A DNA stretch of 64,000 bases, taken from assembly GCA_963769425.1 (NCBI GenBank), contig CAVYLP010000006.1, forward strand, positions 672,001 to 736,000, read 5' to 3'. A program made the translations under genes and the position numbers. The notes under the pieces are model-generated. The model saw nothing but the letters and a program-made list of their open reading frames with translations. It did no database searches and was not told the DNA's origin. This document shows, piece by piece, positions 504 through 55,453 of the stretch. Position 1 is the stretch's first letter, and every line of letters starts with the position of its first letter. This stretch comes from Candidatus Bathyarchaeota archaeon. GTDB lineage: Archaea > Thermoproteota > Bathyarchaeia > TCS64.

Positions 504-2024
504 ATGTCCGCCACCGAGGATGTCATAAAGCGAATCCTTGCCGTCAAGCCGAATCTCACGAGGGAGGCAGTTGAGCGCCTGATTCAGGAGGAGAAGGCGA
601 AGGCCGCCGGCCTGCTCACGGATGAGGCCGCGGCACATCTTGTTGCGTCTAACCTCGGCATGGACGGAGCGGGTGAGCGGATCGAAGCGAAGCTCAAGAT
701 CGGGGCCCTCACCTCGGGGCTCAACGATGTAAGCCTAACGGGGAGGGTGCTTCACCTCTTCCCGTCGAGGACGTTCCAGCGGGCCGACGGGCGCCAAGGC
801 AAGGTCCTCAGGATGCTTATCGGGGACGCCACTGGTATCGTCGCTGTCGTCTTCTGGGACGACAAGGCGGACCACATTGTGGCGAGCAAGGTGACCCGGG
901 GGAAGATTATACGGGTCCTCCACGGCTACAGCCGTGAGAGGCAGGGCACCGGCGAGGTCGAGGTCAACGTGGGTAACCGCGGCACCGTCTACATGGAGCC
1001 ACTCGACGCGGTAGACTCCGAGTTCCCCCAGATGGACTCCTTCTTCAAGACACCTGGGCAGATCAGTGCAACAGGCACCGTCAACGTCGAGGGCGTCATA
1101 ATGAGTCGGTCCCCCACGTCAACATTCACCCGCAAGGACGGCACCGAGGGCAAGGTCGCCCGCCTCAGCATCGAAGAGGGGGGCAGACAGATCACAGCGG
1201 TCCTCTGGGACGAGAAGGTCGATGAGGCCGCGAAGTGGGGCGACGGCACCCGGGTACACATCATAGGCGCAAACTCCAAGGTCCGCCAGGGTGGCGGCTT
1301 CGAGGTCCACCTCAACAGGAGCAGCGAGGTAGAGGTCCTCGAGGAGGGAGTACTACCCCGCGAGCCACTCAGCCAGTGGTCTAAGATCGGTGAGCTGAGG
1401 GACGGGATGCGCAGCGTGAGCACCGCCGGCAGGGTCACGAGCGTCGGTGAACCTCGCGAGTTCACCCGCAAGGACGGGACAAAGGGTCGGGTAGCCTCGG
1501 TGGTCCTCGAGGACGAGACCGGCATCATAAGGCTCAGCCTCTGGGACGACGACGTTAACGCCCTCAACGACATGCCCGTTGGCACTGTCGTCGCCGTGGA
1601 GAACGGTTACACCCGGGCGGGCTTCGGCAACACTATCGACCTCAACGTGGGCCGCCTCGGCACCATGAAGGTCAACCCCGCCGACATCCACGTCGAGGTC
1701 ATCGACGCCGCCGAGCGCGTCACCCAGATCAAGGACCTCCAGGAGGGGCAGAAGAACGTCACAGTGGAGGGACAGCTCCTCGATGACCCGATAAGCAGGG
1801 AGGTCAACACGATGAGGGGCCCCACGAACGTGGTTAGCTTCCGCGTGGACGACGGCACCGGGGAGGCGAGGATAAGCCTCTGGAGGGAGCACGGCAAAGC
1901 CGTCGAGGGATTAACAGCCGGCGCCCGCATAAGGCTGGAGAACTGCAACATCCGCGAGCCCTTCGACGGCCTCATGCAGGTGACGAGCACCCAGTTCACG
2001 AGGATCACGGTCCTGAAGAAGTAA
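504..2024 (+). CDS. rpa: Replication protein A (multi-OB-fold ssDNA-binding protein)
   Basis: Four repeats of the OB-fold pattern (F.R.DG..G.V....D.TG.....WD) after an N-terminal GLLTDEAAAHLVA helical domain. Confidence 0.9.
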   Translation: MSATEDVIKRILAVKPNLTREAVERLIQEEKAKAAGLLTDEAAAHLVASNLGMDGAGERIEAKLKIGALTSGLNDVSLTGRVLHLFPSRTFQRADGRQGKVLRMLIGDATGIVAVVFWDDKADHIVASKVTRGKIIRVLHGYSRERQGTGEVEVNVGNRGTVYMEPLDAVDSEFPQMDSFFKTPGQISATGTVNVEGVIMSRSPTSTFTRKDGTEGKVARLSIEEGGRQITAVLWDEKVDEAAKWGDGTRVHIIGANSKVRQGGGFEVHLNRSSEVEVLEEGVLPREPLSQWSKIGELRDGMRSVSTAGRVTSVGEPREFTRKDGTKGRVASVVLEDETGIIRLSLWDDDVNALNDMPVGTVVAVENGYTRAGFGNTIDLNVGRLGTMKVNPADIHVEVIDAAERVTQIKDLQEGQKNVTVEGQLLDDPISREVNTMRGPTNVVSFRVDDGTGEARISLWREHGKAVEGLTAGARIRLENCNIREPFDGLMQVTSTQFTRITVLKK

Positions 2025-2086
2025 CAGTGAAGACCCCTTACATTCTTCGGTAATTTGTATATTCAGCTTCAGAATACTGTAAGCCA

Positions 2087-2305
2087 ATGGACCAAATCGG
2101 CACCGTCGAGGTCATCCTAATATTTAGTCTGATCATCATTCTGCCCCTGATTTACATTCGAGTCATGCGGGGCAAGGATAGCAGCCGTCAGTATCAGGAG
2201 CGACCGAGCCAGGACTGGAAGGACACCGTAGAGTATCGGCAAGGGGAAGAGTACCTCAAGGTCATGCGCCACGACAAGGAACCCGAGGAAGACGAAAAGA
2301 AATGA
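2087..2305 (+). CDS. Small membrane-anchored hypothetical protein
   Basis: N-terminal TM helix and charged C-terminus; fills an intergenic gap. Confidence 0.55.
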   Translation: MDQIGTVEVILIFSLIIILPLIYIRVMRGKDSSRQYQERPSQDWKDTVEYRQGEEYLKVMRHDKEPEEDEKK

Positions 2306-2415
2306 AATAGGCACACGTAGAGTGTGTTTTTGGGATCCTTTTCTTAATGTGGTGGCTAAGTTTTTTTCCAGCTTTCTCTGAGGTGTATCGGGCTGTGGCA
2401 GCACAAGTCACCCGG

Positions 2416-3753
2416 CTATTTCCGGGCCTTCTCCATAGTTCCGATACTCGCATCGAGGACGTCAAGGCTCTTGTCCACGAGGTCCCTCGTGATTATGAGC
2501 GGGGGCATAAGGCGTATGACGCTCTTGCCGCAGTTGACAACCGCAATCCCCTTCCGGAAGCAGTCCATCATCACGTCCTCCGTCTCCTGAGCGGCGGGGA
2601 TCTTGCTCCTCTTGTCCTTCACGAGCTCCAGCCCACACATGAGGCCGAGGCCGCGGACATCACCGACCATCGGGTGGCTCTCCTTCATCTCCTCCAGCCT
2701 CTTCATGATGTGTGCGCCCTGCTTCTGGGCGTTCTCGAGCATCTTCTCCTCCTTCATCGCCTTGATGACAGCGGAAGCAGCTGCGCAGGCGACGGGGTTT
2801 GCTCCGAAGGTGGAGGCGTGGCTACCCGGCGTCCAGTCCTGGAGATCGGCGCGGCTCGCCATAATTCCCAGCGGCAAGCCCGCGGCGATCGCCTTCGCGA
2901 TTGTGACGATGTCGGGGACCACATCGAAGTGCTCTATGGCGAACCACTTGCCGGTTCTACCCATACCCGACTGGACCTCGTCAACCGCTAGGAGGATGCC
3001 ATAGGTGTCGAGGAGCTTCTTGAGCTTCTTGAAGTAGCCCTTGGGGGGCACGACGTACCCACCCTCCCCTTGGACGGCCTCGACGATGAGCATAGCGACC
3101 TCCTCTGGGGGCACGAATTTGCTGAAGAGGTACTCCTCGATGTAGTCGACGCAGTAGTAGTCGCAACTGGGGCACTCGAGGTGGAACGGGCAGCGGTAGC
3201 AGTATGGGTAGAATAGGTGCTCGACGCCGGGGACGAGGGGCGCGAAGTATCTACGCTGCGCCGGCCTCGAAGCCGTCAGGCTAACAGCACCCATCGTCCT
3301 GCCGTGGAAGCTGCTTATGTAGGCGAGGATGTACTGGCGCTTCGTGTGCCAGCGGGCGAGCTTGATAGCCGCCTCATTCGCCTCAGCGCCGCTGTTCCCG
3401 TAGAAGAACTTCTTCTCGAACGTCCCAGGGACGATGGCGTGTAGCTGCTCTCCAAGGTCGATGTAGTTCTCGTAGAAGAAGTCGGTGTAGCTGTAGCTGA
3501 GGAACTTGTCCACCTGCTCGTGAATGGCCTTAAGCACCTTCGGGTGGCTGTGCCCCACGCCCGTGACGGCTAAACCCGCGTTCATGTCGATGAACTCGTT
3601 TCCATCAACGTCCGTGACTATGCAGCCCTTCGCCTCCTTCACGACGAGCGGATATGCCCTGCCGAAGGAGGGGGATATGTACCTCTCGTCCCTGGCGACG
3701 GCCTTCCTCGCCTTGGGACCGGGAGGCGTGACTACAATCTTCGGGTAACTCAA
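2416..3753 (-). CDS. Class III PLP aminotransferase (4-aminobutyrate/acetylornithine type)
   Basis: SGAEANEAAIK, FHGRT, DEVQSGMGRTG and TIAKAIAAGLP (PLP lysine) motifs; likely TTG start at 3753. Confidence 0.9.
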   Translation of the reverse strand: MSYPKIVVTPPGPKARKAVARDERYISPSFGRAYPLVVKEAKGCIVTDVDGNEFIDMNAGLAVTGVGHSHPKVLKAIHEQVDKFLSYSYTDFFYENYIDLGEQLHAIVPGTFEKKFFYGNSGAEANEAAIKLARWHTKRQYILAYISSFHGRTMGAVSLTASRPAQRRYFAPLVPGVEHLFYPYCYRCPFHLECPSCDYYCVDYIEEYLFSKFVPPEEVAMLIVEAVQGEGGYVVPPKGYFKKLKKLLDTYGILLAVDEVQSGMGRTGKWFAIEHFDVVPDIVTIAKAIAAGLPLGIMASRADLQDWTPGSHASTFGANPVACAAASAVIKAMKEEKMLENAQKQGAHIMKRLEEMKESHPMVGDVRGLGLMCGLELVKDKRSKIPAAQETEDVMMDCFRKGIAVVNCGKSVIRLMPPLIITRDLVDKSLDVLDASIGTMEKARK

Positions 3754-3816
3754 ACCTTTACACCCTCTTCGGGCTACAGTCTGTCCCACCTAGGATAAAA
3801 GGAATGACAGCTTGCC

Positions 3817-4095
3817 CTACCTGGGAGTAATTGCTATCTCTATCGTTGATACGTTTCCCTCTGGCTCCACCCTCGCGTCGGTGCCTATGTTTATGGACTC
3901 GATGCGGGCGTCGCGGACGAAGACCCTCCGCAGCATCTCCGCGGTGTCAACGGCGTTGGCTATGTTCCTCCCCCTCGCCCTGAGCACCACTCCGGGAACC
4001 CCCTCATTGAACAGCGTGAGGCAGGCGACGACGTAGTTCATCGTCGGCTTCGCACCGACTATGACGTAGTTGCCGCGCTCGGTGTCACCCATCAA
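3817..4095 (-). CDS. albA: Alba DNA/RNA-binding chromatin protein
   Basis: VGAKPTMNYVVA, LRARGRNIANAVDTAE and VSTIEI are Alba signature segments. Confidence 0.92.
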   Translation of the reverse strand: MMGDTERGNYVIVGAKPTMNYVVACLTLFNEGVPGVVLRARGRNIANAVDTAEMLRRVFVRDARIESINIGTDARVEPEGNVSTIEIAITPR

Positions 4096-4137
4096 GGAGG
4101 TATCCGCGTAGGGACGCGGGTGGGGATTTAAAGGTAG

Positions 4138-5914
4138 TCAGAGGAGGAGGGCCGCGGCAACCGCTGCCACGAAGCTGAGGGGAAGGGCGGTGACAGCCGT
4201 TCTGATGAAGACTCGGAAGCTCTTCTTGACCAAGTCCCTCAGGACACCGATGCCCTTCAAGCCAATGATAGATACCTCATCCAAGGCTATTCTATCGTGC
4301 GAAACCTCCGCGGGTGTAAGCACAGCACTCGTTCAATGCCTCCCCAACGTACTGCAGCACCTTATCGTGCTCCATCGCTTCCCCGGCGGGGTGGTAACCT
4401 CTATCCGTAGCACCGATGGCGTTCACGATGTGGGTGTCGGAGGACATGACCTCGGCCTCAACAAACCCGAGGGAGGCTACGTGGGTCAGGGCCTCCTCGC
4501 GGAACCCCTGTATGATGTTGTTGCTGTCGAAGACGACGTAGGCGTTCCTCCCCGCGGGTGTCTCCACGACGAGAGCGCCTATCCCGCAGGGGCCCATCCC
4601 CTCGTCGGGGCCCCAATCAGACGGCTTGACTCGTGAGAAGCCAACTTTGAACGGGCCAGCGCTCGACACTTGAGCCTTCCTCATCGCCTCCCCGGCGGCG
4701 GCGACGAGGTTTTCTGCGTCTGCGTCGCTCAGGAAGTCATCGTTGTCCAGGCAGTTGTGGGCATCCGCTATCACCGCCGTCAGTCCCAGCTTCTGAGCCG
4801 CGTCCCTGATTCTGTCCTTGACCGTGTCAGGGATGTCGTCGTGGCTCTTCGGGGCCAGTGTCAGTGTTAGGAACGCCGCCGAACCGAATATCTGGCAGGA
4901 TGCCTTCGCCCCGGAGACCTCCGCCCTCACCATGGGGGTGCAAAACCCCGACTTGGCCGGGTCAGTGGCCCAGTTTAGGGCTGAGACGACCCTCTCCATG
5001 TCCCGGCTCCTAGTCATGTCACTCTCGTGGCTCGATATGCCGTGGACGACCAGCGTCTCGCAAGGCACGCCCTCCGTTATTGCCGTGCTGAGGCAGCTGC
5101 TGCCGACGTTTCTGAAGGGGCCCGGGTGGATGTAGGGCGCCACCAGGTTCCCGATGCACCTCTCCTCCGAGTAGAATGATAACTCGTCAACCTCTAGGGT
5201 CACGGACTCTGAGATGGTTGCGAGTTGGTCCTCCAGCTGCTCGTTTTGCTGCTCCGCCCACGCGTAGACGAAGCCTCGAAACATCGGGATAATCCTGATC
5301 TGTCCTAAGCTCCACGTGCTCAGCCTGATGAGAAGTATCGCCGGGCCGACGAGAATCAAGGCGAGGACGACTAGTAGGGTCGCTGGGGGGATCTGCCAGA
5401 CCTGCGGCAGGAGCAGGTACGTCCCAACCATCATCAGGAGTGGCTGGATCCCTATCGCGACAACAGTCTTCGCGAACCCACGCGTCGAGAAAACGGAGAA
5501 GATGAGGACCCTGATGCTCACGGATGAGTAGACCGTCAGCAGGACCCCACGTAGGAGAATGTCCGGCTTGCCCGAGAATCCTGAGAATATACCAAGCAAC
5601 GTGAGGAGCATCCCACCCGCGAGGCACCAGACGAAGGAGACGATGCTTACCCTTCGCGAGTTCAGGAGGGGGTCTCCCCTGTAGAGGGTATCAGTAAGGA
5701 GATCGGACGCGATCACCGGCAGGGCGATCGCGATTACGCCGAATATTAGCCCTTGCAACAGCCCCGCGGGGCCGTACGCCAAGCCAAATGACAGTGTCCC
5801 CGCCAGCCCCATAGTGACGATGATAAAGGAGACCATCCTGAAGCGGGATGGGAACGTGAACAGGTAGGAATAGTAATCGATTATGTTCCCTATTGCTTCC
5901 CTGCTCGACGACAG
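4138..5914 (-). CDS. DUF2070-family membrane protein, with an apparent +1 frameshift near 4330
   Basis: Multi-TM N-terminus; HPGPFRNVGSS, HGISSHE, DAHN, DSNN and SDTH motifs. The C-terminal TM tail continues in ORF 4138-4323; the frame extends upstream to a CTG at 5914. Confidence 0.8.
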
Positions 5915-6201: not shown

Positions 6202-9200
6202 TTACTGTGCAGCCTTTCTCTCCGCCCCGCCCCGCATGAAGTCGGTTAGGCTGAACTGCTTCGACAGCTCCTCTGGGACAGCCTCTTCGACGAAGATCTG
6301 GCTGAGTTCGAGCTGGACGAGTTCGAGGCGGTCCACGTAGTATTCGTCCAAGCCGTACTTCTTCACCATGTCGAGGGCGGGTTTCAGGTACTTCTCGATG
6401 CCCCCCCTGTGGACCGTCATCTGTATGGGGCCTCCGCAGCGCTGGCACTTCCCCGCAAGCGGTGGGCGTCTGTATTTCCTGTTGCACTTTGTGCAGCGGA
6501 AGGTCTGGCTCGTGAAGGCGCGGAGGTTTCCGACTATGTCCTTCATGAAGTGGCTGTTCAGGATCTTCAGCGCGACCTGCTTCGCGTCTACCGCGCGGAG
6601 TTTCTGGGCGAGCTCAAGCTGGCTGTCGAGCTTGTCTACCATCGTGGTGAGTGTGTTGTATGCGCCGTGGAAGCTGCCCATGTTTATGTCGCTGCACTCC
6701 TCCGTGTAGCTGAAGCCCTGGAACTGCCCCTCGGTGCCCAATCTGGCCCCGATAGTGTCCACGAGGGCACCGTATTGGCCGCTCCCCGCCCCCTCGGCGC
6801 ACAGCTTGTAGAACTCTGGCGGATAGCTCTCGTTCACGTCAACGTTATGTGCCTCCTTGTCGACCTCGCTGGGGTTGAGGAGGGGGATGACGAAGAGAGG
6901 CGCATCCATCTGGCCGCCGCTCTGCTGTGGGAGGTATGTCTTGCTGAAGTTGAGGAGTGGGTCGAGGGCGAGTAGCACCGCATCCTCGTCGCCGTCGCAG
7001 TTCCTGCGCTTCGCTGCGTGCCAGAGCGGGTGGGCGTACTGGTTTCTGACCCGGGTGAAGCCAACGAGCCTCCCCGAGATCGCCGCGGAGGTATGCGGTG
7101 CGAGCCCCAGCAATAGACATCCTACGAGGTCGCCTCGGCCCTTAGCGTTGTAGAAAGGCTCCATACCGTAGAAGTCGCGGAGCTGATCGTCTAGGAACTT
7201 CGATACCTTGAGGAGGTAGTCGCCGCAGTCCTCAGGGAGGATGACATCCTGCACCTTGAGTTCGAGCATCTGTCCCGAGTCTACGAGGGGTTCCCCGTGG
7301 GTGTCCTTGGTATAACCCAGACTCTTCAGCTTCTCGATGGAGACGCCGACCTCGTCTGGCCTGAAGTGGGTGAGGGGGATGTCGGTTAGGTCGAACCTGA
7401 GGGTGCCGTCCTTGAAGACGCTGAGGTCGTACCGGGCCCTGAGGATGCCCTTGGCGATGTGCTCCGGGGTCCTGGTCTGGTTCATCAGCCTCTTCACGCA
7501 CTTGATGCGTGCCGGGAGCTGGCCGCCGATCATCTTGCGGGCGCTCTCGAGTTCATCCTTGAGGTCTACCTCGACTGAGGCGTATGATACTATCTCGGAG
7601 TGGCACTGCGGGCAGCGCTCCCCCTCGAACCTGAGGCCGCAGCGGCTGCACCTGCGTATCTCCTTCGTCTCGCCGCCGCAGTTCACGCAGACGGCTGCGG
7701 GCCCGATCTCGCCGCAGTCGAGGCACTGGCGCTGGCTGAGCTCGACCCTGATGGTCTTCCCCTTCTCCGCCTTGAGTATATCGCGCTGTGGCCCCCCCGC
7801 CTCGCCGACGGGGTAGAGGCTGTGGACGTACGGGGCCATCCTGCGCTCCTTCGCCTTCTCCGGGCGGCCCATGCGGGCCCCGACGAAGGCCCCCGCCTTC
7901 TCCCTGACGGGGAAGCCTGCGAGGTAGTTCACGACCTCCAGCGGCTTCTCTCCCTTGATCTCGGTGTACCGCTGGTCGAGGCCGAGGGTTTTGGCTAGTA
8001 CGCGGGCGTCCTCACCGAGGTCTAGGCGGCCACCCCTGACCTTGTGGGGGAGTAGTAGATTCTCGAGAGCTACCTTCAACTCGGGTATGTTTGGGTACTC
8101 GGTGGAGTCGGGGCTGTACTCGGTGGCAAGGATGTTCCTGAGGTTTATGACCTCGTCGCGGGTGAGGCTTGACCAGTGGTAGTTCCATCGTGGGTGGATG
8201 GGTACGTCGATTGCGGTTAGAGCGAGAGCCTCGTCAACCGTCGGTCTGTGGAGGGGGCTCGCCTTCAGGTACTCGATCCTCTCGGGGAGGAGCCCCGTGA
8301 GGTTGGCCGACGCGTCGTCCCCGATGCGACGGAGGGCCGCCCTGAGGTCCTGCACGTACTGGTTCTCATCGTACCCAGTGGGGAGGAGGGCCTTGTTGTT
8401 CTGTATGAAGTCCCCCGCGTTGCTGAGGTAGTCGCCGAGGAAGATTATCCTCTCGACGCTTGGGAGGAGGCGGTCAGCCTCGGACTCGGTCTCGACACGC
8501 TGGACGGAGCCGTCCCTTAGCCTTACCACCGGTGGCTCTATCGAGTCGACGGGGCATGTGGCAGCGGATTTACCAGGCAGCTCGGTGCGCATCTGGACAC
8601 CGGTTACGAGGAACTTGTTGAGTATGATCATGGCGGCGGGATGGACGCCGCTTGCGGCGAGGCCCGTGTTCCTCGCTCGCCCGTAGCGAAGGCGGAACCC
8701 GCCGACGGCTCCGGGAAAGCTGAAGACGGGGCGCCCAACGATTATCTCTTCCATGAAAGCGGCGGTGGGCTCCTTCGCCTCCCCCTCTCCCTTCTTCTTC
8801 CTACCCATCTTGAGGAGCCACTCCCAGCCGGTGACCCCAAGCTTGTCGCAGGCGCCGTGAAGCTTCCGGGCGCGGCCAACTACCCCGTCCACGACGACGA
8901 TTAGTGCTCCTCCGCGGAGCCTGTTAGTCTCTATCCCGGCGACGTCTCGGTAGTTACTCACCTCGAACTGGTCTGTTGCGACACCTGTAGCCTCGACGGG
9001 TATCTGGCGTATGGCCGCCTCGAGATCCTCGTCGGTGACGTGGTACTGAAAGCGGCGGACGGTGCGCTCGTAGAGTCGGACCTCTTCGACGAAGCGCTGG
9101 ACCTGGTTCTCGCTTGGCTGATATTTCTCTAGGCCGAGCTTCTTCCTGACATGATCAGCAACAACGAGTGTCATTGCCTGGGCGGTGCCGCCCGCGGGGC

Positions 9201-9639
9201 GGATGGGGCCAGCGAAGTAGAGGCTGAGGTACTGGGTGCGATCCGGGTTGACTTTGATTACTATTTTAGGCAGGCCCTCGATTGGGGCTACGGTGACGCC
9301 CTCAGTCATGATGGCGAGGGCTGTGCGGATCGCCTGGTCGGCCGCTTGCTGTTTCTCGAAGGCTCCGAATCGGCCGAGGGTGATCTCCTCTGCTATCTTG
9401 AAGGCCATTTCTCTGCGGTCCATGCCCTCGAGTTCCCTCATGCGGGCGGTGAGGCCGGGGGGGCCAAGCATCTTCTCAACGCGCTCCGCGATGTCGTGTG
9501 TGATCTGCGCCTCGACCTCCCTGCTCGCGTCGAAACCCTTCGCCCGGGCGGCGCCGGCGACCTCGTAGAGCTTTGCCAGTTTCGCCTCTAGCTCGTCGAA
9601 GTATGCCCTGTTTTCCGGCGTCATGCGGAGCTGGCTCAA
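6202..9639 (-). CDS. polC: DNA polymerase D large subunit DP2
   Basis: YFAGPIR..GGT, GGFRLRYGRARNTG, GARMGRPEKA, catalytic RRNCDGDED and C-terminal Zn finger; no intein insertion. Confidence 0.97.
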   Translation of the reverse strand: MSQLRMTPENRAYFDELEAKLAKLYEVAGAARAKGFDASREVEAQITHDIAERVEKMLGPPGLTARMRELEGMDRREMAFKIAEEITLGRFGAFEKQQAADQAIRTALAIMTEGVTVAPIEGLPKIVIKVNPDRTQYLSLYFAGPIRPAGGTAQAMTLVVADHVRKKLGLEKYQPSENQVQRFVEEVRLYERTVRRFQYHVTDEDLEAAIRQIPVEATGVATDQFEVSNYRDVAGIETNRLRGGALIVVVDGVVGRARKLHGACDKLGVTGWEWLLKMGRKKKGEGEAKEPTAAFMEEIIVGRPVFSFPGAVGGFRLRYGRARNTGLAASGVHPAAMIILNKFLVTGVQMRTELPGKSAATCPVDSIEPPVVRLRDGSVQRVETESEADRLLPSVERIIFLGDYLSNAGDFIQNNKALLPTGYDENQYVQDLRAALRRIGDDASANLTGLLPERIEYLKASPLHRPTVDEALALTAIDVPIHPRWNYHWSSLTRDEVINLRNILATEYSPDSTEYPNIPELKVALENLLLPHKVRGGRLDLGEDARVLAKTLGLDQRYTEIKGEKPLEVVNYLAGFPVREKAGAFVGARMGRPEKAKERRMAPYVHSLYPVGEAGGPQRDILKAEKGKTIRVELSQRQCLDCGEIGPAAVCVNCGGETKEIRRCSRCGLRFEGERCPQCHSEIVSYASVEVDLKDELESARKMIGGQLPARIKCVKRLMNQTRTPEHIAKGILRARYDLSVFKDGTLRFDLTDIPLTHFRPDEVGVSIEKLKSLGYTKDTHGEPLVDSGQMLELKVQDVILPEDCGDYLLKVSKFLDDQLRDFYGMEPFYNAKGRGDLVGCLLLGLAPHTSAAISGRLVGFTRVRNQYAHPLWHAAKRRNCDGDEDAVLLALDPLLNFSKTYLPQQSGGQMDAPLFVIPLLNPSEVDKEAHNVDVNESYPPEFYKLCAEGAGSGQYGALVDTIGARLGTEGQFQGFSYTEECSDINMGSFHGAYNTLTTMVDKLDSQLELAQKLRAVDAKQVALKILNSHFMKDIVGNLRAFTSQTFRCTKCNRKYRRPPLAGKCQRCGGPIQMTVHRGGIEKYLKPALDMVKKYGLDEYYVDRLELVQLELSQIFVEEAVPEELSKQFSLTDFMRGGAERKAAQ

Positions 9640-9669: not shown

Positions 9670-10422
9670 TTAGGCTTGGGCCCGGAGTGCGGAGGTTATC
9701 TCGCGTATGCGCTCCGTGACCTTCATCTCCTCCTCGACGAGGGTTCCGGTGACGATTATCTGGGCGCCCGCCATCTTCGCGGCGACTGCTGCCCTCGCGT
9801 CCCTGATCCCACCGCCGACGATTAGGGTGCCCTTGCAGTACTTGCGTACCGCGCCGATCATCTGTGGGTACACGGGCTGGGGCGCGCCGGAGCCCGCCTC
9901 AAGGTAGATGTAACGCATGCCGAGTAGTTCGGCAGCGGACGCGTAGGCGACGGCCAGTTCGGGGCGGTCGTATGGGACGACGCGTGCCTGTCCGACGTAG
10001 CCCGCTGCTCCGCCGTAGCCGACGATAATATAGCCCATTGGCATCGTCTCTAGCCCGAGCTTCTTCACCATAGGGGCTCCGATGGCCTGGCTGTCTATGA
10101 GGTAGTAGGTGTTGGAGCTGTTGAGTAGGCTCATGAACCAGATGGCGTCGGCAGCGCCGGTAATGCTGGCGATGTTGTTGGGGAAGATGATGACTGGGAG
10201 CTTGACGGCTGCCTTGATCCTCTTGACGGTGTCCTCCATTTCGACTCCCGAGGCCACGGTGCTCCCGCCCACCATTATGGCGGCGGTTCCGCCTGCCTCC
10301 GCGTCCTTGGCGATGGCGGCGCAGTTATAACCCGACTTCTTCTCGGGGTCGAGGAGGGTCATATGTATGCAGCCCTCCGCCTTGATGCGGTCCTGGATCA
10401 GCTGCTCTACGCAGTTAGGCAA
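9670..10422 (-). CDS. Geranylgeranylglyceryl phosphate synthase
   Basis: HMTLLDPEK, IMVGGS, YLEAGSGA, VGGGIR and IIVTGT motifs. Confidence 0.93.
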   Translation of the reverse strand: MPNCVEQLIQDRIKAEGCIHMTLLDPEKKSGYNCAAIAKDAEAGGTAAIMVGGSTVASGVEMEDTVKRIKAAVKLPVIIFPNNIASITGAADAIWFMSLLNSSNTYYLIDSQAIGAPMVKKLGLETMPMGYIIVGYGGAAGYVGQARVVPYDRPELAVAYASAAELLGMRYIYLEAGSGAPQPVYPQMIGAVRKYCKGTLIVGGGIRDARAAVAAKMAGAQIIVTGTLVEEEMKVTERIREITSALRAQA

Positions 10423-10666
10423 CCTTCTGCGTCGCCCCCTCCTCGTAGTACTTGTCGACGAACGTGCTGTATGCGTCGACGGGGGCCGTGTTGGGCTCTA
10501 TGGTTATGCGTCCATGTAGGCCGCAGGCGCTGCAGCGTATGCCGGCGAGGTTGTTCTTGGGGTCGATTGTGACTTTTATGGAGTTCTTGGCGCAGTTGGG
10601 GCAGAGGAACAGCTCGGGCAGAGTCTTCCTTATGATTTTTTCTTCCTTCTTCCTTCTTCTTCCCAT
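10415..10666 (-). CDS. elf1: Transcription elongation factor Elf1
   Basis: MGRRRKK basic N-terminus, F.CP.C...C..CG zinc ribbon and PVDAYS.FVD. Confidence 0.9.
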   Translation of the reverse strand: MGRRRKKEEKIIRKTLPELFLCPNCAKNSIKVTIDPKNNLAGIRCSACGLHGRITIEPNTAPVDAYSTFVDKYYEEGATQKVA

Positions 10667-10699: not shown

Positions 10700-11494
10700 T
10701 CAGCTTAGTCTTAAGATTGCCGGAAGTGTGCGTTTGTGCTCATTGGCGGCTATCCTCGCTATGATCCCCTCGACGCTCCGTTGATCGACGCACGTCTCCG
10801 AGGCTATACGAGCCGGTGCCCAGCCCTTGAGGTGTGTGTGGACTATGAGGTCTATGCTATCGTAGGGAAGCCCGAGGTCCTTCTCCGTATCCTGCCCAAG
10901 CCAGAGGCGCGCCGATGCGGGCTTCTCCGTTATGCTCGTGGGGACGCCGAGGTACCTGCCTAGGGCGCGGATCTGGCACTTGTAGAGATCCGCGAAGGGC
11001 ATGATATCCACTCCCCCGTCCCCGTACTTCGTGTAATAGCCAAGGTAGAGCTCGGTTTTGTTCGACGTGCCCATCACCATGGCTCTCCGGGTGTTGGCGA
11101 AGTAGTAGGTTAGCAACATCCTGAGGCGGGCTTTCATGTTGCCGTAAGCGATCCTGTCAGATGGGTCGAATCCGGGGATGTTTTCACGCATCACGTGTAA
11201 CATCGGCGTGATTTCGACGTGCTCACACGTGACTCCGACTGTCTCACAGAGGCGTATCACATCGTCGACGTCTGCGTTTGGTGTGATATCACGCTCAGGG
11301 AGGGTCAGCGCGGTGACATTTTCAGGCCCAAAAGCCTTCACTGAGGCGGCTAGTGCTGTAGCCGAGTCTATTCCGCCACTTACAGCAACCACGATGCCTC
11401 TTAATCCCGCCGACTTGATCGTGTTTTGAATAAATTCTGAGATTTTTTCGCTGGTTTTTTGCGGGTCGATATTTAGCTGCTCGATGCCGATCAT
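10700..11494 (-). CDS. nadE: NH3-dependent NAD+ synthetase
   Basis: SGGIDS, GNMKARLRM, GTSNKTE, GYYTKYGDG, PSA.LW.GQ.TE and HKR motifs. Confidence 0.95.
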   Translation of the reverse strand: MIGIEQLNIDPQKTSEKISEFIQNTIKSAGLRGIVVAVSGGIDSATALAASVKAFGPENVTALTLPERDITPNADVDDVIRLCETVGVTCEHVEITPMLHVMRENIPGFDPSDRIAYGNMKARLRMLLTYYFANTRRAMVMGTSNKTELYLGYYTKYGDGGVDIMPFADLYKCQIRALGRYLGVPTSITEKPASARLWLGQDTEKDLGLPYDSIDLIVHTHLKGWAPARIASETCVDQRSVEGIIARIAANEHKRTLPAILRLS

Positions 11495-11681
11495 TGGGTT
11501 TCATGTGACGTGGAAGGATTAAATCGTTTCTTTATGTGATTTTTATGATAATTTTAGCTATTTATGCCTTGTTTTTTGCTGATTTGGGAGAATATCAGAT
11601 GTTTGAGCACATGTTACACTAGGAATGGCCTGTTTAGAGGCTGAATCAAAAGATTGATATGGCATACAGTTCTGTATACAA

Positions 11682-11702
11682 TGGTATCATTATGTGATAC
11701 CA
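11682..11702. promoter_or_regulatory. Inverted repeat TGGTATCA-N5-TGATACCA, putative operator
   Basis: Perfect 8-bp inverted repeat 21 bp upstream of the 11724 start; both arms resemble the GTGATATCAC motif. Confidence 0.55.
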
Positions 11703-11723
11703 ATAGATATGGGGCGTGAATGA

Positions 11724-12182
11724 GTGGAGTCCACTAAAGAGACCCAAAATATGATTCAGAAAGCATTTCAGGACCCAATAACAGACCTGTTACTAAATAA
11801 CAGCAATTTAACGAGGACTCAGTTTGAAACACTCATGATTGACCTATTAATTGACGTAATGTCCGATGAAAAGGTTCCGTTTAAAGATAAGACCTTATTT
11901 AGAACCCATAAGGTTAGTCGAGGTTCATTTAGCCGCACATTAGGGCAAGCTAGGCATAGAGTGATATCTTCAATCTTCACTATAGTCCTCCTTAGCTATG
12001 TAGGAGTCTATGACGCTAAGCCCTTTGAGGAATATCAAAATCTCTCAGAAAAATTGAGAGAATACCTCTCCGAGATCGAGAAGTCTGGTACCAAGTCACC
12101 AGCCCTACTTAGACGAATAGAGGAGGAATTGACTATGGGAATAGAGTCTCTGTCACACCCGACGAAGCTGAAGGTGGTGTGA
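11724..12182 (+). CDS. Uncharacterised protein with putative HTH-like DNA-binding segment
   Basis: 152-aa ORF filling the nadE-hypF gap; SNLTRTQFETL...KVSRGSFSRTLGQAR resembles an HTH, followed by a hydrophobic helix and a coiled C-terminus. Confidence 0.75.
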   Translation: MESTKETQNMIQKAFQDPITDLLLNNSNLTRTQFETLMIDLLIDVMSDEKVPFKDKTLFRTHKVSRGSFSRTLGQARHRVISSIFTIVLLSYVGVYDAKPFEEYQNLSEKLREYLSEIEKSGTKSPALLRRIEEELTMGIESLSHPTKLKVV

Positions 12183-12189
12183 TATCACA

Positions 12190-14514
12190 CTAAATCACAG
12201 ATGTTAGGGCAATACAGGATTGGCCTAAGGAGGATCCCCCGTCGCCTAACGGCGTTTTGGTGTTCGTCAACACATCTAATCCTGTTTTTTCGACGTTTTT
12301 GATGATTCTCTGCGAAATGTTTCTGTTGACTAGCACACCACCCGAGATCGCTATTATATTGATGTCCTCTGCTCTGGCTACATCTATAGCCATCTCTGAA
12401 ATACCATCGGCTAAATATTTCTGTACAAAAGCCGCAATATCTTCTTTTTTAAGGGTATTTTTGTTATCTATTAGATATTTAAGCATATTTGCAGTTTTTA
12501 ACTCATAAATACGGTTATTATTCTCTATTTGAGGCTCATATTTTACCGTCTCTGGGCTACCTTTTTCCGCTAAGGATTCTAGTCTCATAGCTGGCTCACC
12601 TTCGTAAGTTCTGTAATAAGTTAAACCTAGTAAAGAGGCGACCGAGTCAAGTAATCTGCCCGAGCTAGAGGTTTTTAGGACGTTTTTAACCCTCGACTGC
12701 TTGATAATCAAGTCGCGTTCATCTAAACCGTTAGGTAACGCTTCTTCTATGTGATTTTCTGTGATATCACGCAACTCATTATCGCTTAGTACGGTGGAAA
12801 GGGCTGCGATAAGCATTCTATAGGGGTACATCGCACATAGGTCTCCTCCCGGCATGGGTAGATACTCAAGCTGACCGGTCCGTTTATAGTCTGAATAGGT
12901 CGAAATTAGCACTTCTCCACCCCAGATCGCTCCATCTGGCCCATATCCCGCACCATCTAGGGCTATCCCGACGACGTTCTCATCCGGCTTTACGCCATTC
13001 TCAGCGCACACGGAGACTATATGGGCGTGATGATGCTGTGACCTTGTGATTTCCACGCCCATCTCTTGTGATATCACTCCCGCCAACTGTGATGTCATGT
13101 AACCGGGATGCTGGTCACAGGCTATCACATCGGGGTTACGTGTGATTCTGAGGATGTCACGCAAGGCGTGGATGGCGCTTTTCTCGTATTCCAAGGTCTC
13201 TAGGTTGGTTATGTCACCAAGGTATTGGGTCTGGTAGCATTTCCCGTCTAGCGTGACCGAGGCTGCGTTACTTTGCTCCGTACCAACTGCGAAAGATATG
13301 CCCTTTTTAATGGGTATTTCAACAGGATCGGGCACATAACCACGCGATCTCCTCACAAAGGCCACACGCCCATCGTTGACGCGCATGAGGGAGTCGTCGC
13401 ACCTGTTCACTATCTCCCTGTTGTGGACGAGGAAATAGTCGGCAACGCCCCTAAGGTCACTGAGGGCGTCCTTGTTCGTTATAGCCATGGGCAACCCAGA
13501 CCTGTTACCGCTCGTCATGACGAGGGCCAGACCGTCAAGCCTCTTGAAGAGCATCACCTGTATCCCAGTGTAGGGGAGCATCACGCCGACACGACTCAAC
13601 CCCGGCGCGACGAGATCGGAGATCTCTCCGCTCCGCCTCTTTACGAGGACTATCGGCTTCTGCCAGGAGACCAGCGCCCTCAACTCGTAGATGTCGGGGG
13701 AGGCGAAGCTCTTCACGGCCGCGAGGTCAGGAGCCATGAGGGCGAAGGGCTGGTACGGTCTGTTCTTACGGGCCCTCAACTTCTCGACTGGGCCATCCTC
13801 GGTGGCGAAGGCAGCGAGGTGGAATCCACCGATCCCCTTGACAGCAACAATGCTCCCTTCCCTCAGCAGCTTCGCCACCTCCGCGAAGACGTCGCTGACT
13901 TTTATCTCCACCCCAGAGGCGTCCAGCAGGCTCATCTTGGGGCCGCAGATGCTGCAGGTTATTCCCTGCGCGTCGAATCGCCTGTCGAGTGGGTTCCTGT
14001 AGTCGCTCTGACAGTGCCTGCACATGGGGAAGGCGTCCATATGTGTCCTCTCCCTGTCGTAGGGTAGGGACCTGACCCCGGTGAACCGTGGGCCGCACCA
14101 GGCGCAGGCCGTGAAGGGGTACTCGAACCACCGTCCCCCCTTGTCCTCCATGTCCCTGAGGCAATCGGGGCAGATCCCGATGTCGGGCGGGAAGATGCCC
14201 GAAGCGGCGTCCCTGCCGCTCCTGCTACGGTCAATGACGAACTCTGTGAACCTACCCCTGTAGGGTCTGTAAGAAGAGTGTATCCCAGTGATCTCGGATA
14301 CGGGCGGCGCCTCCGCTTGTATCGACTTGATGAATGCCTCCACGTTCTCGGTTGGGCCCTCGACGACGGCTTCGACCCCCGCGTCCCCGAGGTTTATGAC
14401 GTATCCCCTGAGCCCGTGGCGGACCGCCAGACGGTAGATGAAAGGGCGGAAGCCCACGCCCTGCACCCTGCCGGTCACGTGGACCTCGGCCTCGACGCTG
14501 CCCGGGGAGCCCAA
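12190..14514 (-). CDS. hypF: [NiFe]-hydrogenase maturation carbamoyltransferase
   Basis: Acylphosphatase domain GRVQGVGFRPF, two Zn fingers, KGIGGFHL, MTSGN, QHHHAH, DGAGYG.DG.IWGGE and GDGG.SLGQ. Confidence 0.95.
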   Translation of the reverse strand: MGSPGSVEAEVHVTGRVQGVGFRPFIYRLAVRHGLRGYVINLGDAGVEAVVEGPTENVEAFIKSIQAEAPPVSEITGIHSSYRPYRGRFTEFVIDRSRSGRDAASGIFPPDIGICPDCLRDMEDKGGRWFEYPFTACAWCGPRFTGVRSLPYDRERTHMDAFPMCRHCQSDYRNPLDRRFDAQGITCSICGPKMSLLDASGVEIKVSDVFAEVAKLLREGSIVAVKGIGGFHLAAFATEDGPVEKLRARKNRPYQPFALMAPDLAAVKSFASPDIYELRALVSWQKPIVLVKRRSGEISDLVAPGLSRVGVMLPYTGIQVMLFKRLDGLALVMTSGNRSGLPMAITNKDALSDLRGVADYFLVHNREIVNRCDDSLMRVNDGRVAFVRRSRGYVPDPVEIPIKKGISFAVGTEQSNAASVTLDGKCYQTQYLGDITNLETLEYEKSAIHALRDILRITRNPDVIACDQHPGYMTSQLAGVISQEMGVEITRSQHHHAHIVSVCAENGVKPDENVVGIALDGAGYGPDGAIWGGEVLISTYSDYKRTGQLEYLPMPGGDLCAMYPYRMLIAALSTVLSDNELRDITENHIEEALPNGLDERDLIIKQSRVKNVLKTSSSGRLLDSVASLLGLTYYRTYEGEPAMRLESLAEKGSPETVKYEPQIENNNRIYELKTANMLKYLIDNKNTLKKEDIAAFVQKYLADGISEMAIDVARAEDINIIAISGGVLVNRNISQRIIKNVEKTGLDVLTNTKTPLGDGGSSLGQSCIALTSVI

Positions 14515-14644: not shown

Positions 14645-15313
14645 TTGGATCTCACGATAACCGCGGCCGCCCTATTACTAGTCACCGTAGTCGCCTCCAT
14701 CATCTTTTACCGCAGGATAAAGGAGGCGACATCCGAGTACAACGGCGCTAAGGAGTTCGTCCACAACTTAACCTTCGGCTTCACCCGCCAGGTCAACCAC
14801 CTTCAGCAGGACGTAGCTAAGGCCGAGAATGAGGCGACGACGGCCAAGATCGTTGCGTCTGAAGCCCTGAGGAACAGTGGCGAGGCGAAGGAGGCGACCC
14901 TCAAGGGCCTCGAGGCCGTGAAGACCATCCAGAGCCGTGTAGACTCCACCGAGTCTGAGGTCGATTCCATTAGGAGGGAGGTCCAGAAGCTCGCCGCCGC
15001 CCCGAAGCAGCGCGTGGTCGTACGCCAGGACATAGCAGCCCCAATCCCCGTACAGCAGGGCAATATACTAGCGCAGCTGACGGAGACCGAGCTGAGCGCT
15101 CTCAAGAAGATTGCTGAGCTCGGCGAGGGGGCTGTCCCTGAGATCAAGGAGCACCTCGGCACCACCCGTGAGCACACAGCGCGTACACTCAAGAAGCTCT
15201 ACGAGTCCGGCTTCGTTGACCGCAGCACCAACGCCATGCCCTACCGCTACAGCGTCCGTAAGGAGATACGCGACCTCATCCAGCAACAGCCGGAGCAGAA
15301 GCCGACGCTGTAG
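14645..15313 (+). CDS. Membrane-anchored coiled-coil protein with C-terminal winged-HTH
   Basis: N-terminal TM helix, heptad-rich middle, and C-terminal LTETELSAL...TREHTARTLKKLYESGFVDR...PYRY wHTH. Confidence 0.8.
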   Translation: MDLTITAAALLLVTVVASIIFYRRIKEATSEYNGAKEFVHNLTFGFTRQVNHLQQDVAKAENEATTAKIVASEALRNSGEAKEATLKGLEAVKTIQSRVDSTESEVDSIRREVQKLAAAPKQRVVVRQDIAAPIPVQQGNILAQLTETELSALKKIAELGEGAVPEIKEHLGTTREHTARTLKKLYESGFVDRSTNAMPYRYSVRKEIRDLIQQQPEQKPTL

Positions 15314-15996: not shown

Positions 15997-17475
15997 TTGA
16001 GCGAGCAGACCCCCCAGTTCCTGCAGCGCATAATCGAGGCAGGCTACCAGCTAAGCCCGGACGCCTACGCCTACCTCATGGGGCTACCCGCCGAGACAGC
16101 AGACACCCTATCACAAAAGGCCGTTTTGAAGGCAGACTCTTCCTCCCCTCCTCTCTTCGTGCTCGATAAGGGCTACCTGCTAGTACTCGTCGAGACTCCC
16201 CGACCGGAGCCCCTCCCTCAGAAGAACCGTCCAATACCCGCTAGGGACAAGGGCACGTCTCTCAAGGTTCTCGATGAGGAACCCGCACAACCAGCCAGCG
16301 ACGCCGAGGGCTTCCTCCAGTACTTCCAGAGCCGATACGACCGCCTCGAGGCTATACTCAAGCGCCGCGTCGACGTGAAGGACGCCATACCGATCGAGCA
16401 GGCGCTCAAGCTCCCCCTCAAGACAAAGCTCAAGACAACCGGCATCGTCTCCGAGAAACGAACCAGAGGCAACAAGTTATTCATCGAGCTCGAGGACCGC
16501 CGCTCCACAATCAGCGTCATGGCCACAGACGAGGACGTCATGCACCGCGGCTTGGAGCTGCAGGAGGATCAGGTCATCGCCGTCGACGCAGTCAAATACA
16601 CAGACGACCTGCTGATCGCAAACGACTGGATCTGGCCCGACGTCCCAAATAACACCCCTAGACGAAGCCCTGACCCACTATATGCGGCCCTGCTCGCGGA
16701 TGTCCACGTCGGCTCCAAATACTACAGGGGCGACCTCTTCGACAAGTTCATCGACTGGATGAACCTCGAACTCGGTCCGCCACAGAGCAGGGACGCAGCT
16801 GCGCGCGTCAAGTACGTCGTCATAGCTGGTGACCTCGTCGACGGCGTCGGTATATACCCCGAGCAGCTGGACGAACTCACCATATCCGACATACGAGAGC
16901 AGTACAGGGCGGCCGCGGAGCTCCTCAAGCAACTACCCGACTACGTGGAGATCGTCGTGACCCCTGGCAACCACGACGCGACCCGCCACAGCATGCCTCA
17001 GCCCCCCATACCCAAGGAGTACGCTAAGGAGCTGCACGAGGACCCGCGCGTCAAGATGCTATCCAGTCCCTGCAGGCTTAACCTAAACGGAGTCGAGATC
17101 CTCGTCGAGCATGGCAAGGGGATGGACGACATACTCAGCAGCACGCCCGGCTACGAGTTCCAACACCCACTGAAGGCGATGGAGCTCCTCTTTAGATGCC
17201 GCCACCTTGCCCCCCGCTACGGACAGAGCACTCCGATCGCCCCCGAGCGCACTGACCGGCTCGTCATTGGTAGCGTTCCCGACGTCATGCTCATGGGGCA
17301 CATCCACATCAACGAGACCAAGCGCTACAAGGGCGTCACACTGGTCTCCGCGGGTTCGTGGCAAGATCAGACCCCCTTTCAGAAGCGTATGCAGATAGAA
17401 CCCACGACGGGTGTTGCCACAATATTCGACTTGCAGACCCACCAGACTCTTGACCTCGACTTCAAGCGCTTCTAG
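15997..17475 (+). CDS. polB: DNA polymerase D small subunit DP1 (proofreading exonuclease)
   Basis: OB fold plus phosphoesterase motifs DVHVGS, AGDLVDG.GIYP, PGNHD, RHLAP.YG and GHIH. Confidence 0.95.
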   Translation: MSEQTPQFLQRIIEAGYQLSPDAYAYLMGLPAETADTLSQKAVLKADSSSPPLFVLDKGYLLVLVETPRPEPLPQKNRPIPARDKGTSLKVLDEEPAQPASDAEGFLQYFQSRYDRLEAILKRRVDVKDAIPIEQALKLPLKTKLKTTGIVSEKRTRGNKLFIELEDRRSTISVMATDEDVMHRGLELQEDQVIAVDAVKYTDDLLIANDWIWPDVPNNTPRRSPDPLYAALLADVHVGSKYYRGDLFDKFIDWMNLELGPPQSRDAAARVKYVVIAGDLVDGVGIYPEQLDELTISDIREQYRAAAELLKQLPDYVEIVVTPGNHDATRHSMPQPPIPKEYAKELHEDPRVKMLSSPCRLNLNGVEILVEHGKGMDDILSSTPGYEFQHPLKAMELLFRCRHLAPRYGQSTPIAPERTDRLVIGSVPDVMLMGHIHINETKRYKGVTLVSAGSWQDQTPFQKRMQIEPTTGVATIFDLQTHQTLDLDFKRF

Positions 17476-18016
17476 TCAGACCACGCGCTACGATCCCAGC
17501 GACCCTCACCGGCTCCGGCGCCCTCGTCAACGACGCCGAGGACCTCAGAACCTCCTCACACCAATCCCTCGACTCACCAACCACCTCGAAGAACACAGGA
17601 GGATAACCCTCTCTCGTCACGAGGCTGTAAACATCCCCCAGCTGCGCTATCGGGGCCCACCTCTCACCCCAATCGGTGAAGTGGGCCTTCAAAGCTGCGA
17701 GTACCGAGGCACTATCTGGCTTCTCCCCTGAATAAACGATCACTGGGACGCCAAGTTCGTCATGCACTCTGGTTCCGTCGATTATATTGAACCCAGCGAA
17801 GGAGACGCCTCCGAGTATCACAGCGTCGCAGCGGATGTTTACAAGCATACCGAGCAACACGTCGGTAGCGTCCCGCCCGTCGACGGTGACCTTGCCTAAT
17901 CTAATCGCCTCTACCCTGTCTCCTATCATTAAGACTGCACAGAGTAAGGTCAACTGCCCCGACTGGAATGCTCTGAAGCCGCCGTCCTCCACCCCCACGA
18001 GGCTGAGGGAACTCAA
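17462..18016 (-). CDS. DUF99 (endonuclease V-like) protein
   Basis: GVEDG.F, VDGRDAT, GGVSFAGFNIID and PEPVRVA motifs. Confidence 0.85.
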   Translation of the reverse strand: MSSLSLVGVEDGGFRAFQSGQLTLLCAVLMIGDRVEAIRLGKVTVDGRDATDVLLGMLVNIRCDAVILGGVSFAGFNIIDGTRVHDELGVPVIVYSGEKPDSASVLAALKAHFTDWGERWAPIAQLGDVYSLVTREGYPPVFFEVVGESRDWCEEVLRSSASLTRAPEPVRVAGIVARGLTRSA

Positions 18017-53990: not shown

Positions 53991-54533
53991 ATGTCTAATA
54001 TCGTTGCGAAAATAAAAATTGACAAGAATTTAGGTATCATTGAAGTCGAAGGGACAGAAATATTCGTTAAAGAAATGATTGAAAAATATGGAACTTTAAT
54101 TCTTACATCAGTGAAAAAGCCTGACATACCCCCAAAAGCTCCTCCAGAACAAGGTAAACCAGAAGGAGTAAAGCGTCGTAAGCCAGCAACAGTGTCTGTA
54201 GAAGCTGTAGAAATCGACCTAAATTCCGGAGCGAATTACTCCTCATTAAAGGACTTCTATAACACGAAACAGCCAGAATCTTTCATTGAAAAGACAACGT
54301 TGTTTACATACTACCTAAAGCAATTCAAAGAGATTCAAGAAGCAACTCCCGGCCATTTACTAACATGTTATCGGAGCGTAGGTTCAAAACTTCCTAAGAA
54401 TATTCCTCAAACAATTTTAGATGCAAAACAGAAAGGTTGGCTAGCACCTGATTCAAGTGTCAATAGTGCAAAAATTGGTAACATTGGAATTAATTTAATT
54501 GAACATGAATTACCAAAACGGAAAGAAAAATAG
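53991..54533 (+). CDS. Hypothetical protein: beta-hairpin/helix N-domain plus wHTH-like C-domain
   Basis: KIKID...IIEVEGTEIFVKE N-terminus, Pro/Lys linker, and LKDFY..K.P...KGWL...GINLIE. Confidence 0.7.
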   Translation: MSNIVAKIKIDKNLGIIEVEGTEIFVKEMIEKYGTLILTSVKKPDIPPKAPPEQGKPEGVKRRKPATVSVEAVEIDLNSGANYSSLKDFYNTKQPESFIEKTTLFTYYLKQFKEIQEATPGHLLTCYRSVGSKLPKNIPQTILDAKQKGWLAPDSSVNSAKIGNIGINLIEHELPKRKEK

Positions 54534-54535
54534 AT

Positions 54536-55450: not shown

Positions 55451-55453
55451 AGT

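Follow-up and report, generated by a model that had tools for sequence, protein, structure and literature searches.

A predicted helix-turn-helix protein encoded within a conserved, helically phased site array in Bathyarchaeia, and its candidate operators

Two described kinds of archaeal regulator are the closest points of comparison for the locus considered here. EnfR (TON_1525 of Thermococcus onnurineus, a member of the Tfx family, PDB 8HNO) has long stem helices that cross and helix-turn-helix (HTH) motifs that lie 35.8 Å apart, and it acted as a roadblock in a reporter assay (PMC10570040). TrmB-family regulators read GTGATA/TATCAC half-sites, and TrmBL1 and Tgr bind TATCAC-N5-GTGATA (PMC4158304). 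The locus lies in a 64,000-nucleotide stretch of DNA from a Candidatus Bathyarchaeota archaeon (the window, G000:C6:672001-736000, C6 being one of the six contigs of a 2.55-Mb assembly) and comprises an uncharacterized gene, X, its partner gene, Y, an array of GTGAY/RTCAC half-sites around X, and an ATACA-N4-TGTAT palindrome in front of X. The array is conserved across genera and helically phased, and selection at the DNA level maintains it within hypF, at synonymous positions. The X protein is predicted to be a DNA-binding HTH protein of the sigma-70 region 4/LuxR/Tfx structural kind and to form a homodimer through its long recognition helix. We tentatively favor a reading, to which we give slightly less than an even chance, with two operators: X on the ATACA palindrome, and Y, or X together with Y, on the GTGAY array. 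The features on which the argument depends are as follows.

11724..12182, + strand: gene X, 152 aa, GTG start, an open reading frame (ORF) call
14645..15313, + strand: gene Y, 222 aa, the conserved partner gene of X
10700..11494, - strand: nadE (NAD synthase), strong Pfam match, divergent from X and carrying cluster A
12190..14514, - strand: hypF (carbamoyltransferase HypF), strong Pfam match, its 3' third (33-45% GC) holding clusters C and D
11664..11677: ATACAGTTCTGTAT, candidate X operator, in the X promoter and 46 nt before the start codon
11190..11317: cluster A, 7 half-sites including GTGATATCAC at 11283-11292, within the nadE coding sequence
12177..12198: cluster B, GTGTGATATCACAC on the X stop codon, then N5, then ATCAC at 12194-12198
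12751..12770: cluster C, GTGAT-N5-GTGATATCAC, in hypF, encoding RDITENH on the minus strand
13027..13160: cluster D, 10 half-sites in ~130 bp, including GTGATATCAC at 13068-13077, in hypF
13114-13146: conserved element of cluster D, GTCAC-N5-ATCAC-N13-GTGAT

X is transcribed opposite to both flanking genes (X on the plus strand, nadE and hypF on the minus strand), as the initial annotation of this DNA had it, and the longest palindrome, which that annotation placed over the X stop codon, is indeed a perfect 14-bp palindrome, GTGTGATATCACAC at 12177-12190, that contains the TGA at 12180-12182. The motif-like sites reported upstream of and inside the gene survive only in weaker form: the internal site at 11961 is GTGATATC, with 8 of 10 bases, and those upstream, at 11536 and 11694, are no more than one GTGAT half-site each. 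The 10-mer GTGATATCAC occurs four times in the window (11283, 12179, 12761, and 13068, a span of 1.8 kb) against an expected 0.09, a count of four being reached in none of 100 shuffles, and five times in the whole 2.55-Mb genome. The fifth copy, at C6:554106, was considered as a member of the array and judged to be a chance occurrence, having no flanking half-sites. Successive kilobases from 11 to 14 kb contain 12, 8, and 15 GTGAY/RTCAC half-sites, compared with ~3-4 per kb elsewhere, and no other 2 kb of the genome is as dense in GTGAT/ATCAC as the X locus (16 versus a mean of 3.45).

This arrangement recurs in relatives. An exact GTGATATCAC starts between -1 and +9 of the X stop in 33 of 40 related loci; at least two half-sites lie within -8 to +30 of the stop in 47 of 60 loci, drawn from many families, compared with 17 of 4204 background windows; and the X stop codon is a TGA inside GTGA at 41 of the 60 loci, across classes. 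Distant lineages carry GTGACATCAC or GTGACGTCAC instead. In one genome (G049) both genome-wide copies of the 10-mer adjoin X, and a site that recurs in relatives at about -890 from the X stop corresponds to cluster A. The composites also recur: abutting GTGAT and ATCAC followed by N5-ATCAC in B, GTGAT-N5 followed by abutting GTGAT and ATCAC in C, and RTCAC-N5-ATCAC-A-N7-TTACRTGTGAY in D. The spacings of half-sites peak at 10, 21, and 32 bp for direct repeats and at 5, 15, 25, and 35 bp for convergent pairs, which is the helical phasing of the array. A full-text literature search with GTGATATCAC gave, among the matches listed, unrelated primer or construct sequences.

Three further sets of genomes should be noted. 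In one locus (L016, G015:C23:288464-291844) X is present in two frames, with residues 1-127 and 127-152 matching adjacent pieces, which reflects either a frameshift or an assembly error, and the array is retained there. In the five X-negative genomes that were searched, variants of the 10-mer are scattered, never two on one contig; several of these variants lie near contig ends, so that the absence of X may be an assembly gap. Another locus (L074, G050:C15:45000-54500), from a genome of ~1.2 Mb, has 3.3 kb between X and hypF (~990-4300, oriented on X) without ORFs of at least 100 aa; this stretch holds four GTGAYRTCAC 10-mers and two dense half-site clusters.

The selection acting on the array can be seen where it overlaps coding sequence. 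Among 24 X-adjacent hypF genes, the mean share of the major codon is 0.97 at the 8 conserved-residue codons in sites C and D, compared with 0.53 for the other 151 conserved-residue codons, only 11 of them reaching 0.9. X-adjacent hypF genes encode (R/C)DIT.NH at site C, whereas four hypF genes away from X encode unrelated residues there and have no 10-mer. The X-adjacent genes are 49-86% identical to the hypF of the window over the C-terminal 400 residues; those located elsewhere (L069-L072), in genomes where none adjoins X, are only ~40% identical to the product of window 12190-14514, a pattern in the sequences that suggests two hypF lineages, one adjacent to X and one elsewhere. The corresponding codon signal in nadE is weak (0.64 versus 0.55) and comes from two codons only. 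In genomes without hypF at this position, the order B-C-D is found in 0.4-1.3 kb of non-coding DNA of 21-37% GC, with D just upstream of Y. The array is an unusually clear case of a cis-element lying over coding sequence, the same ordered clusters being non-coding in some genera and in the hypF frame in others, where they fix codons and peptide alike.

The second element lies at the other end of X. ATACAGTTCTGTAT is the only ATACA-N4-TGTAT in the 2.55-Mb genome; a relaxed form of the ATACA motif occurs within -160 to +30 of the X start in 44 of 60 loci, compared with 8 of 1481 background windows; and four of five other genomes have one or two ATACA copies in total, of which one is found just upstream of X. 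At one locus of family f22 (L045) the palindrome ends 4 nt before the X start, just downstream of an AT-rich TTTAAAGTTTAA that is possibly a TATA box, and an element so placed would be suited to repression.

Judged by its sequence matches, X represents an uncharacterized family of Bathyarchaeia and of other classes of the same phylum, among which the atlas cluster names for Y point to Nitrososphaerota. The gene is single-copy: it has matches in 45 of 61 relatives, one each except for one frameshifted copy, and in 158 of 301 genomes sampled across the phylum, nearly all with one match per genome. It is found in all 43 genomes of family f22 (complete genomes of 1.1-4.3 Mb, mostly 1.4-2.2 Mb, which we take to be those of ammonia oxidizers) and in none of several other families. 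The 396 homologues, none of which is named, fall into 193 clusters at 50% identity. The earlier statement that no named family could be assigned agrees with searches of Pfam and NCBIfam, which matched no family, the sole hit being GIT_SHD at E 0.053, which is not meaningful. A widespread and nameless family, one with neither a Pfam model nor a role, has now acquired a predicted fold, a predicted dimer, and two candidate DNA targets.

The AlphaFold2 model of X, made with a 66-sequence alignment, is all-helical (predicted local distance difference test score, pLDDT, 92.1; predicted template modeling score, pTM, 0.83), with helices at residues 2-16, 18-25, 31-46, 53-59, 66-92, 100-121, and 126-144. 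These are predicted to form a compact helical HTH domain (~17-92), in which the recognition helix (66-92) comes last, and a C-terminal helical hairpin (100-144). The HTH-like segment first noticed in the sequence coincides, in this confident model, with the turn and the first part of the recognition helix, and the coiled tail noticed with it matches the helical C-terminal elements. Residue G67 is invariant and D17, L23, T30, Q33, R60, R71, L73, Q75, T86, L89, and Y92 are nearly so; R60, G67, R71, L73, and Q75 are positioned in or just before the recognition helix. Because the VIA-align search with the whole model was swamped by generic matches to the C-terminal hairpin, the N-terminal domain was folded (pLDDT 94.8 when modeled alone) and searched separately. 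To judge from their titles, its best 50 rows were mostly chains of sigma-70 region 4, extracytoplasmic function (ECF) sigma-4, LuxR-type proteins, and EnfR, at Z 4.5-6.0, with EsrB (Z 5.8), DesR (Z 5.4, root mean square deviation (rmsd) 1.5, 53 residues aligned), and EnfR 8hno (Z 5.4-6.0) as examples; in the whole-model search, X residues 26-86 matched EnfR 8hno with an rmsd of 1.4 over 52 residues. Z values of 4.5-6.0 for a helical domain are under the level at which a merely common arrangement could be excluded, and make the similarity of fold suggestive, not decisive. At the level of sequence, X had no hit to Pfam HTH families at E up to 1 and falls short of the gathering scores for Sigma-70 region 4/LuxR-type HTH (PF04545 and relatives); the highest-scoring of the homologues, at L053, reached 13.8 bits against Sigma70_r4 (cut-off 24.1, E 0.044) and matched DUF134 at E 0.043, a family weakly matched by 2 of the 66 X family members. 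A profile search of the PDB with the 66-sequence alignment returned nothing below E 0.6 and a weak echo of the HigA-2 HTH at E 1.

Prediction of the X homodimer gave a median interaction prediction score from aligned errors (ipSAE) of 0.57, compared with 0.00 for the best control, a mark that 20 of 30 proteins with solved structures of paired identical chains also reached, as did 1 of 23 whose solved structure is a single chain. Agreement between runs was at least 48% of contacts, with a pLDDT of at least 61 for the partner. In the predicted interface residues 79-95 cross their counterparts, with 83-83 and 87-87 contacts, and residues 14-41 contribute further, an arrangement that resembles the crossing of the stem helices described for EnfR (PMC10570040). 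The hydrophobic helix that the initial annotation considered suitable for dimerization or membrane contact is the C-terminal half of the recognition helix; the first of these roles agrees with the predicted interface, whereas the second is unsupported because the helix lies in that interface.

Y has one transmembrane helix, at its N terminus, then a long coiled coil and, at its C terminus, a MarR/TrmB winged helix, with almost no extracellular part. Its Pfam scores for MarR (32.4 bits) and TrmB PF01978 (27.3 bits versus a cut-off of 25.6) are both above the cut-offs; the winged helix is of the TrmB type, but the domain is C-terminal (residues 145-203), not N-terminal as in the TrmB family. The Pfam scan gave no hit to a sugar-binding effector domain, the 222 residues being made up of the transmembrane helix, the coiled coil, and the winged HTH. 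A membrane-anchored DNA binder without a sensor domain, as Y is predicted to be, is unusual, and it has been kept beside X across classes. Y is present in 46 of 61 relatives and lies downstream of X in most loci, and the discordances between X and Y are mostly at contig edges. The gene order in Bathyarchaeia is DP2, GGGPS, and in some cases Elf1 and nadE on one strand, followed on the other by X, the array with or without an opposing hypF, Y, in some cases a cupin gene, and DP1; in family f22 it is DP2 and GGGPS on one strand, and X and Y on the other. X-Y is an ancient two-gene module between the genes for DNA polymerase D (PolD), with X first and the two nearly always paired. The remaining neighbors in the window are the following, together with a PcrB/GGGPS gene and a cupin gene.

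6202..9639, - strand: presumed PolD large subunit DP2, 1145 aa, named from our own reading of the translation and conserved placement
15997..17475, + strand: presumed PolD small subunit DP1, 492 aa, named in the same way
10415..10666: Elf1-like zinc ribbon
504-2024: RPA-like protein with several oligonucleotide/oligosaccharide-binding (OB) folds
17462-18016: Endo_dU nuclease

The names DP2 and DP1 are thus our assumption, made by reading the translations and not by a family search; homologues of the former occupy the same position upstream of X in related loci, and those of the latter the same position downstream of Y. Genes of replication and transcription are abundant around X, including those for the RPA-like protein, the Elf1-like protein, and Endo_dU and the two ORFs read as PolD subunits.

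We infer the assignment of a protein to each element, and the regulatory outcome, as follows. The X homodimer, with its EnfR-like HTH, would bind ATACA-N4-TGTAT over its own promoter and so bring about autorepression, and Y, alone or jointly with X, would read the GTGAY/RTCAC array (clusters A-D). We take the ATACA palindrome as the most likely operator of X because an EnfR-like crossed-helix dimer sets its recognition helices one helical turn apart: the half-site spacing of ~9 bp in ATACA-N4-TGTAT fits such a dimer, and the inverted repeats of the array, offset by 5 bp, fit it poorly. In family f6, in which no Y was found, the GTGAY array is missing, whereas X retains its KVSRGAFNRT motif and the ATACA palindrome. 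The TrmB-type winged HTH of Y and the GTGATA/TATCAC hexamers that the array shares with the sites of TrmBL1/Tgr (PMC4158304) favor Y as the array reader, and Y, or X with Y, is a more likely reader than X alone.

A number of observations weigh against this two-operator reading. The matches to the fold of X are modest (Z <8), and Foldseek searches of the PDB with the whole model and with the N-terminal domain gave nothing at E <1, TFIIB and cyclin rows recurring weakly. The favorable dimer prediction may reflect likeness to solved sigma-4/EnfR structures, and the ATACA palindrome might be part of the basal promoter and not an operator. The array stays at the X stop where Y is not the next gene (in the genus of the window, where hypF intervenes, and at L056, L057, and L064), and no GTGAY sites were found at the Y promoter in hypF-containing genomes (7 loci and the window itself), an odd absence if Y regulates itself. 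The array also lacks the Thermococcales glycolytic motif (TGM) arrangement, having <4 divergent pairs at a distance of 10. Finally, the f6 family represents a single evolutionary event and would be equally expected if X bound the array only to control Y. It is on this last account that two operators remain a tentative preference and that X on the array, although the less probable of the two, retains a substantial place.

That second possibility, which we consider somewhat unlikely, is that the GTGATATCAC array has X itself as its cognate protein, with dimers acting cooperatively on A-D on both sides of the gene, through looping or roadblocks, to control X and the flanking operons nadE-Elf1-GGGPS-DP2, hypF, and Y-cupin-DP1. 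X is central, with cluster A upstream and B-D downstream; the strongest site falls on its stop codon in 33 of 40 loci, and the placing of the TGA stop inside GTGA in 41 of 60 loci extends across classes. When hypF parts X from Y the array remains beside X, and the Y promoters of those hypF-containing genomes are without GTGAY sites. The recognition helix of X is nearly invariant, as would be expected for a conserved target, the C-terminal hairpin could link dimers, and the reporter assay with EnfR is a precedent for a roadblock (PMC10570040). However, inverted half-sites 5, 15, 25, and 35 bp apart are a misfit for an EnfR-like dimer with helices ~36 Å apart, family f6 has X with an intact recognition helix and no array, and the conserved ATACA palindrome at the X promoter would require another binder. 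Co-location alone does not separate X from Y as the reader, Y being a near-constant neighbor. Of the initial proposal, that X is a dimeric site-specific DNA-binding protein encoded inside its own cluster of sites, the HTH fold and the dimer are borne out as predictions and the cluster around the gene is real and conserved; that GTGTGATATCACAC is the site of X itself is less probable, given the adjacent Y, the ATACA palindrome at the X promoter, and the retention of X without the array in f6.

An improbable but broader alternative is a chromosome-anchoring or centromere-like module, in which membrane-anchored Y, with or without X, would bind the array as a positional element, one ancestrally next to oriC/cdc6 and the PolD genes, and would tether this part of the chromosome to the membrane in the service of segregation or of the control of replication; together with the phased array, X and Y would then constitute an ancient origin-proximal anchoring system of Bathyarchaeia and related classes that needs no ParA or ParB. 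To our knowledge, little has been established about segregation and cell-cycle control in these archaea. The presence of one array per genome, the phasing of direct repeats at 10, 21, and 32 bp, and the retention of sites in coding DNA are consistent with such a role, and the transmembrane helix of Y, with almost no extracellular part, makes anchoring more plausible than sensing. In 7 of the 12 genomes checked, a gene bearing Cdc6_C (orc1/cdc6) follows X on the same strand at a distance of 2-6 kb, and in one genome the 3.3 kb after X contains four 10-mers and no ORFs of at least 100 aa. Against this, no ParA/SegA-like protein was found among the 12 neighboring proteins scanned, a scan limited to these and not extended to the whole genome, and in the family of the window cdc6 is distant from the module (345 kb in G021, another contig in the genome of the window); the case for anchoring is positional throughout. 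A PolD-flanked module, often adjacent to orc1/cdc6, with a membrane-anchored predicted DNA binder is nevertheless a candidate for replication-linked regulation or chromosome anchoring.

That the array is itself a replication origin, with X as initiator or origin-binding factor, is very improbable. The GC content falls to 33-45% from ~11400 to 12900, a trough that includes the 3' third of hypF, compared with a mean of 57% for contig C6; an AT-rich trough at X is conserved in relatives whatever their genome GC, the 0.4-1.3 kb between X and Y has 21-37% GC in genomes where hypF is missing from this position, and replication genes lie on all sides of the locus. On the other hand, G146 and G215 have, immediately upstream of cdc6 and away from the GTGAY sites, an AT-rich spacer flanked by inverted repeats that resemble origin recognition boxes (ORB); no ORB-like pair was found at the X locus of the window; and on contig C6 the turn in cumulative GC skew falls at ~720 kb and not at 683-685 kb. 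The distance between cdc6 and X is 15-23 kb in two further genomes, and the only Cdc6_C hit in the genome of the window is on contig C1 (cdc6 at C1:24363-25535). The X locus of the window was accordingly rejected as an origin, having no ORB-like pairs, cdc6 elsewhere, and the skew turn ~40 kb away; in many lineages the array is near an origin, yet it is not itself the origin. Two other sites were noted: window 54001-56000, 2 kb at 33% GC near the skew turn of C6, and G000:C1:157028-157473, where inverted ORB-like 12-mers (2 mismatches each) flank a 434-bp spacer of 36% GC. To go by its sequence, the latter is possibly an origin of this genome, ~130 kb from the only cdc6.

Least credible is an action of the stop-codon palindrome in RNA, as a 3' hairpin for termination or stability: a stem of 7 bp closed by a 4-nt loop can form in the mRNA at the X stop, but the folding z-score is -1.2, with 22 of 200 shuffles folding at least as well, the motif also occurs on either side of X and in genes of the opposite strand, with helical phasing, and an Rfam scan of six loci found no match.

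Comparison with described systems places X and Y near several of them. In the predicted model, X shares the helical HTH fold of its residues ~17-92 with sigma-70 region 4, ECF sigma-4, and the DNA-binding domains of LuxR/NarL proteins; unlike these, its sequence matches all lie under the curated thresholds, and it is a stand-alone protein with its own mode of dimerization and no receiver or sigma-2 domain. In ParB-parS systems and plasmid centromere arrays a few conserved sites are clustered at one place, some of them in coding DNA that includes the region of the binder's gene, and the position near the origin in many lineages is a further likeness to the present array. In contrast, searches of Pfam and NCBIfam found neither the ParB N-terminal (CTPase) domain nor the ParB HTH in X or Y, and, again unlike ParB-parS, the scan of 12 neighboring proteins, the whole genome being unsearched, included no ParA-like gene.

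With TrmBL1/Tgr and the TGM, Y shares the TrmB winged helix and the array shares GTGATA/TATCAC hexamers (PMC4158304). Y differs in having a transmembrane helix and a coiled coil in place of the sugar-binding domain. In the array, inverted half-sites abut or are spaced by 5+10n and direct repeats by 10n, an arrangement other than TATCAC-N5-GTGATA, and the array is at a single locus, unlike the TrmBL1/Tgr regulon.

The closest likeness to the protein X is EnfR. X has no detectable sequence relation to EnfR, 8hno not appearing in the PDB profile search even at E up to 10, and, unlike the Tfx family, it has no Tfx hit in Pfam or NCBIfam. Structurally, X differs in an extra N-terminal helix and in a helical hairpin that replaces the alpha+beta "note-head" domain; the model is free of strands, its hairpin spanning residues 100-144, so that X lacks the C-terminal domain characteristic of the Tfx family. 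By prediction, X has, as EnfR does, an HTH like that of region 4 with a recognition helix extended into a long stem helix, and its dimer, in a prediction that may lean on solved relatives, would combine an antiparallel crossing of these helices with contacts of N-terminal helices. Like EnfR, X is small, archaeal, and encoded near hydrogenase-related genes.

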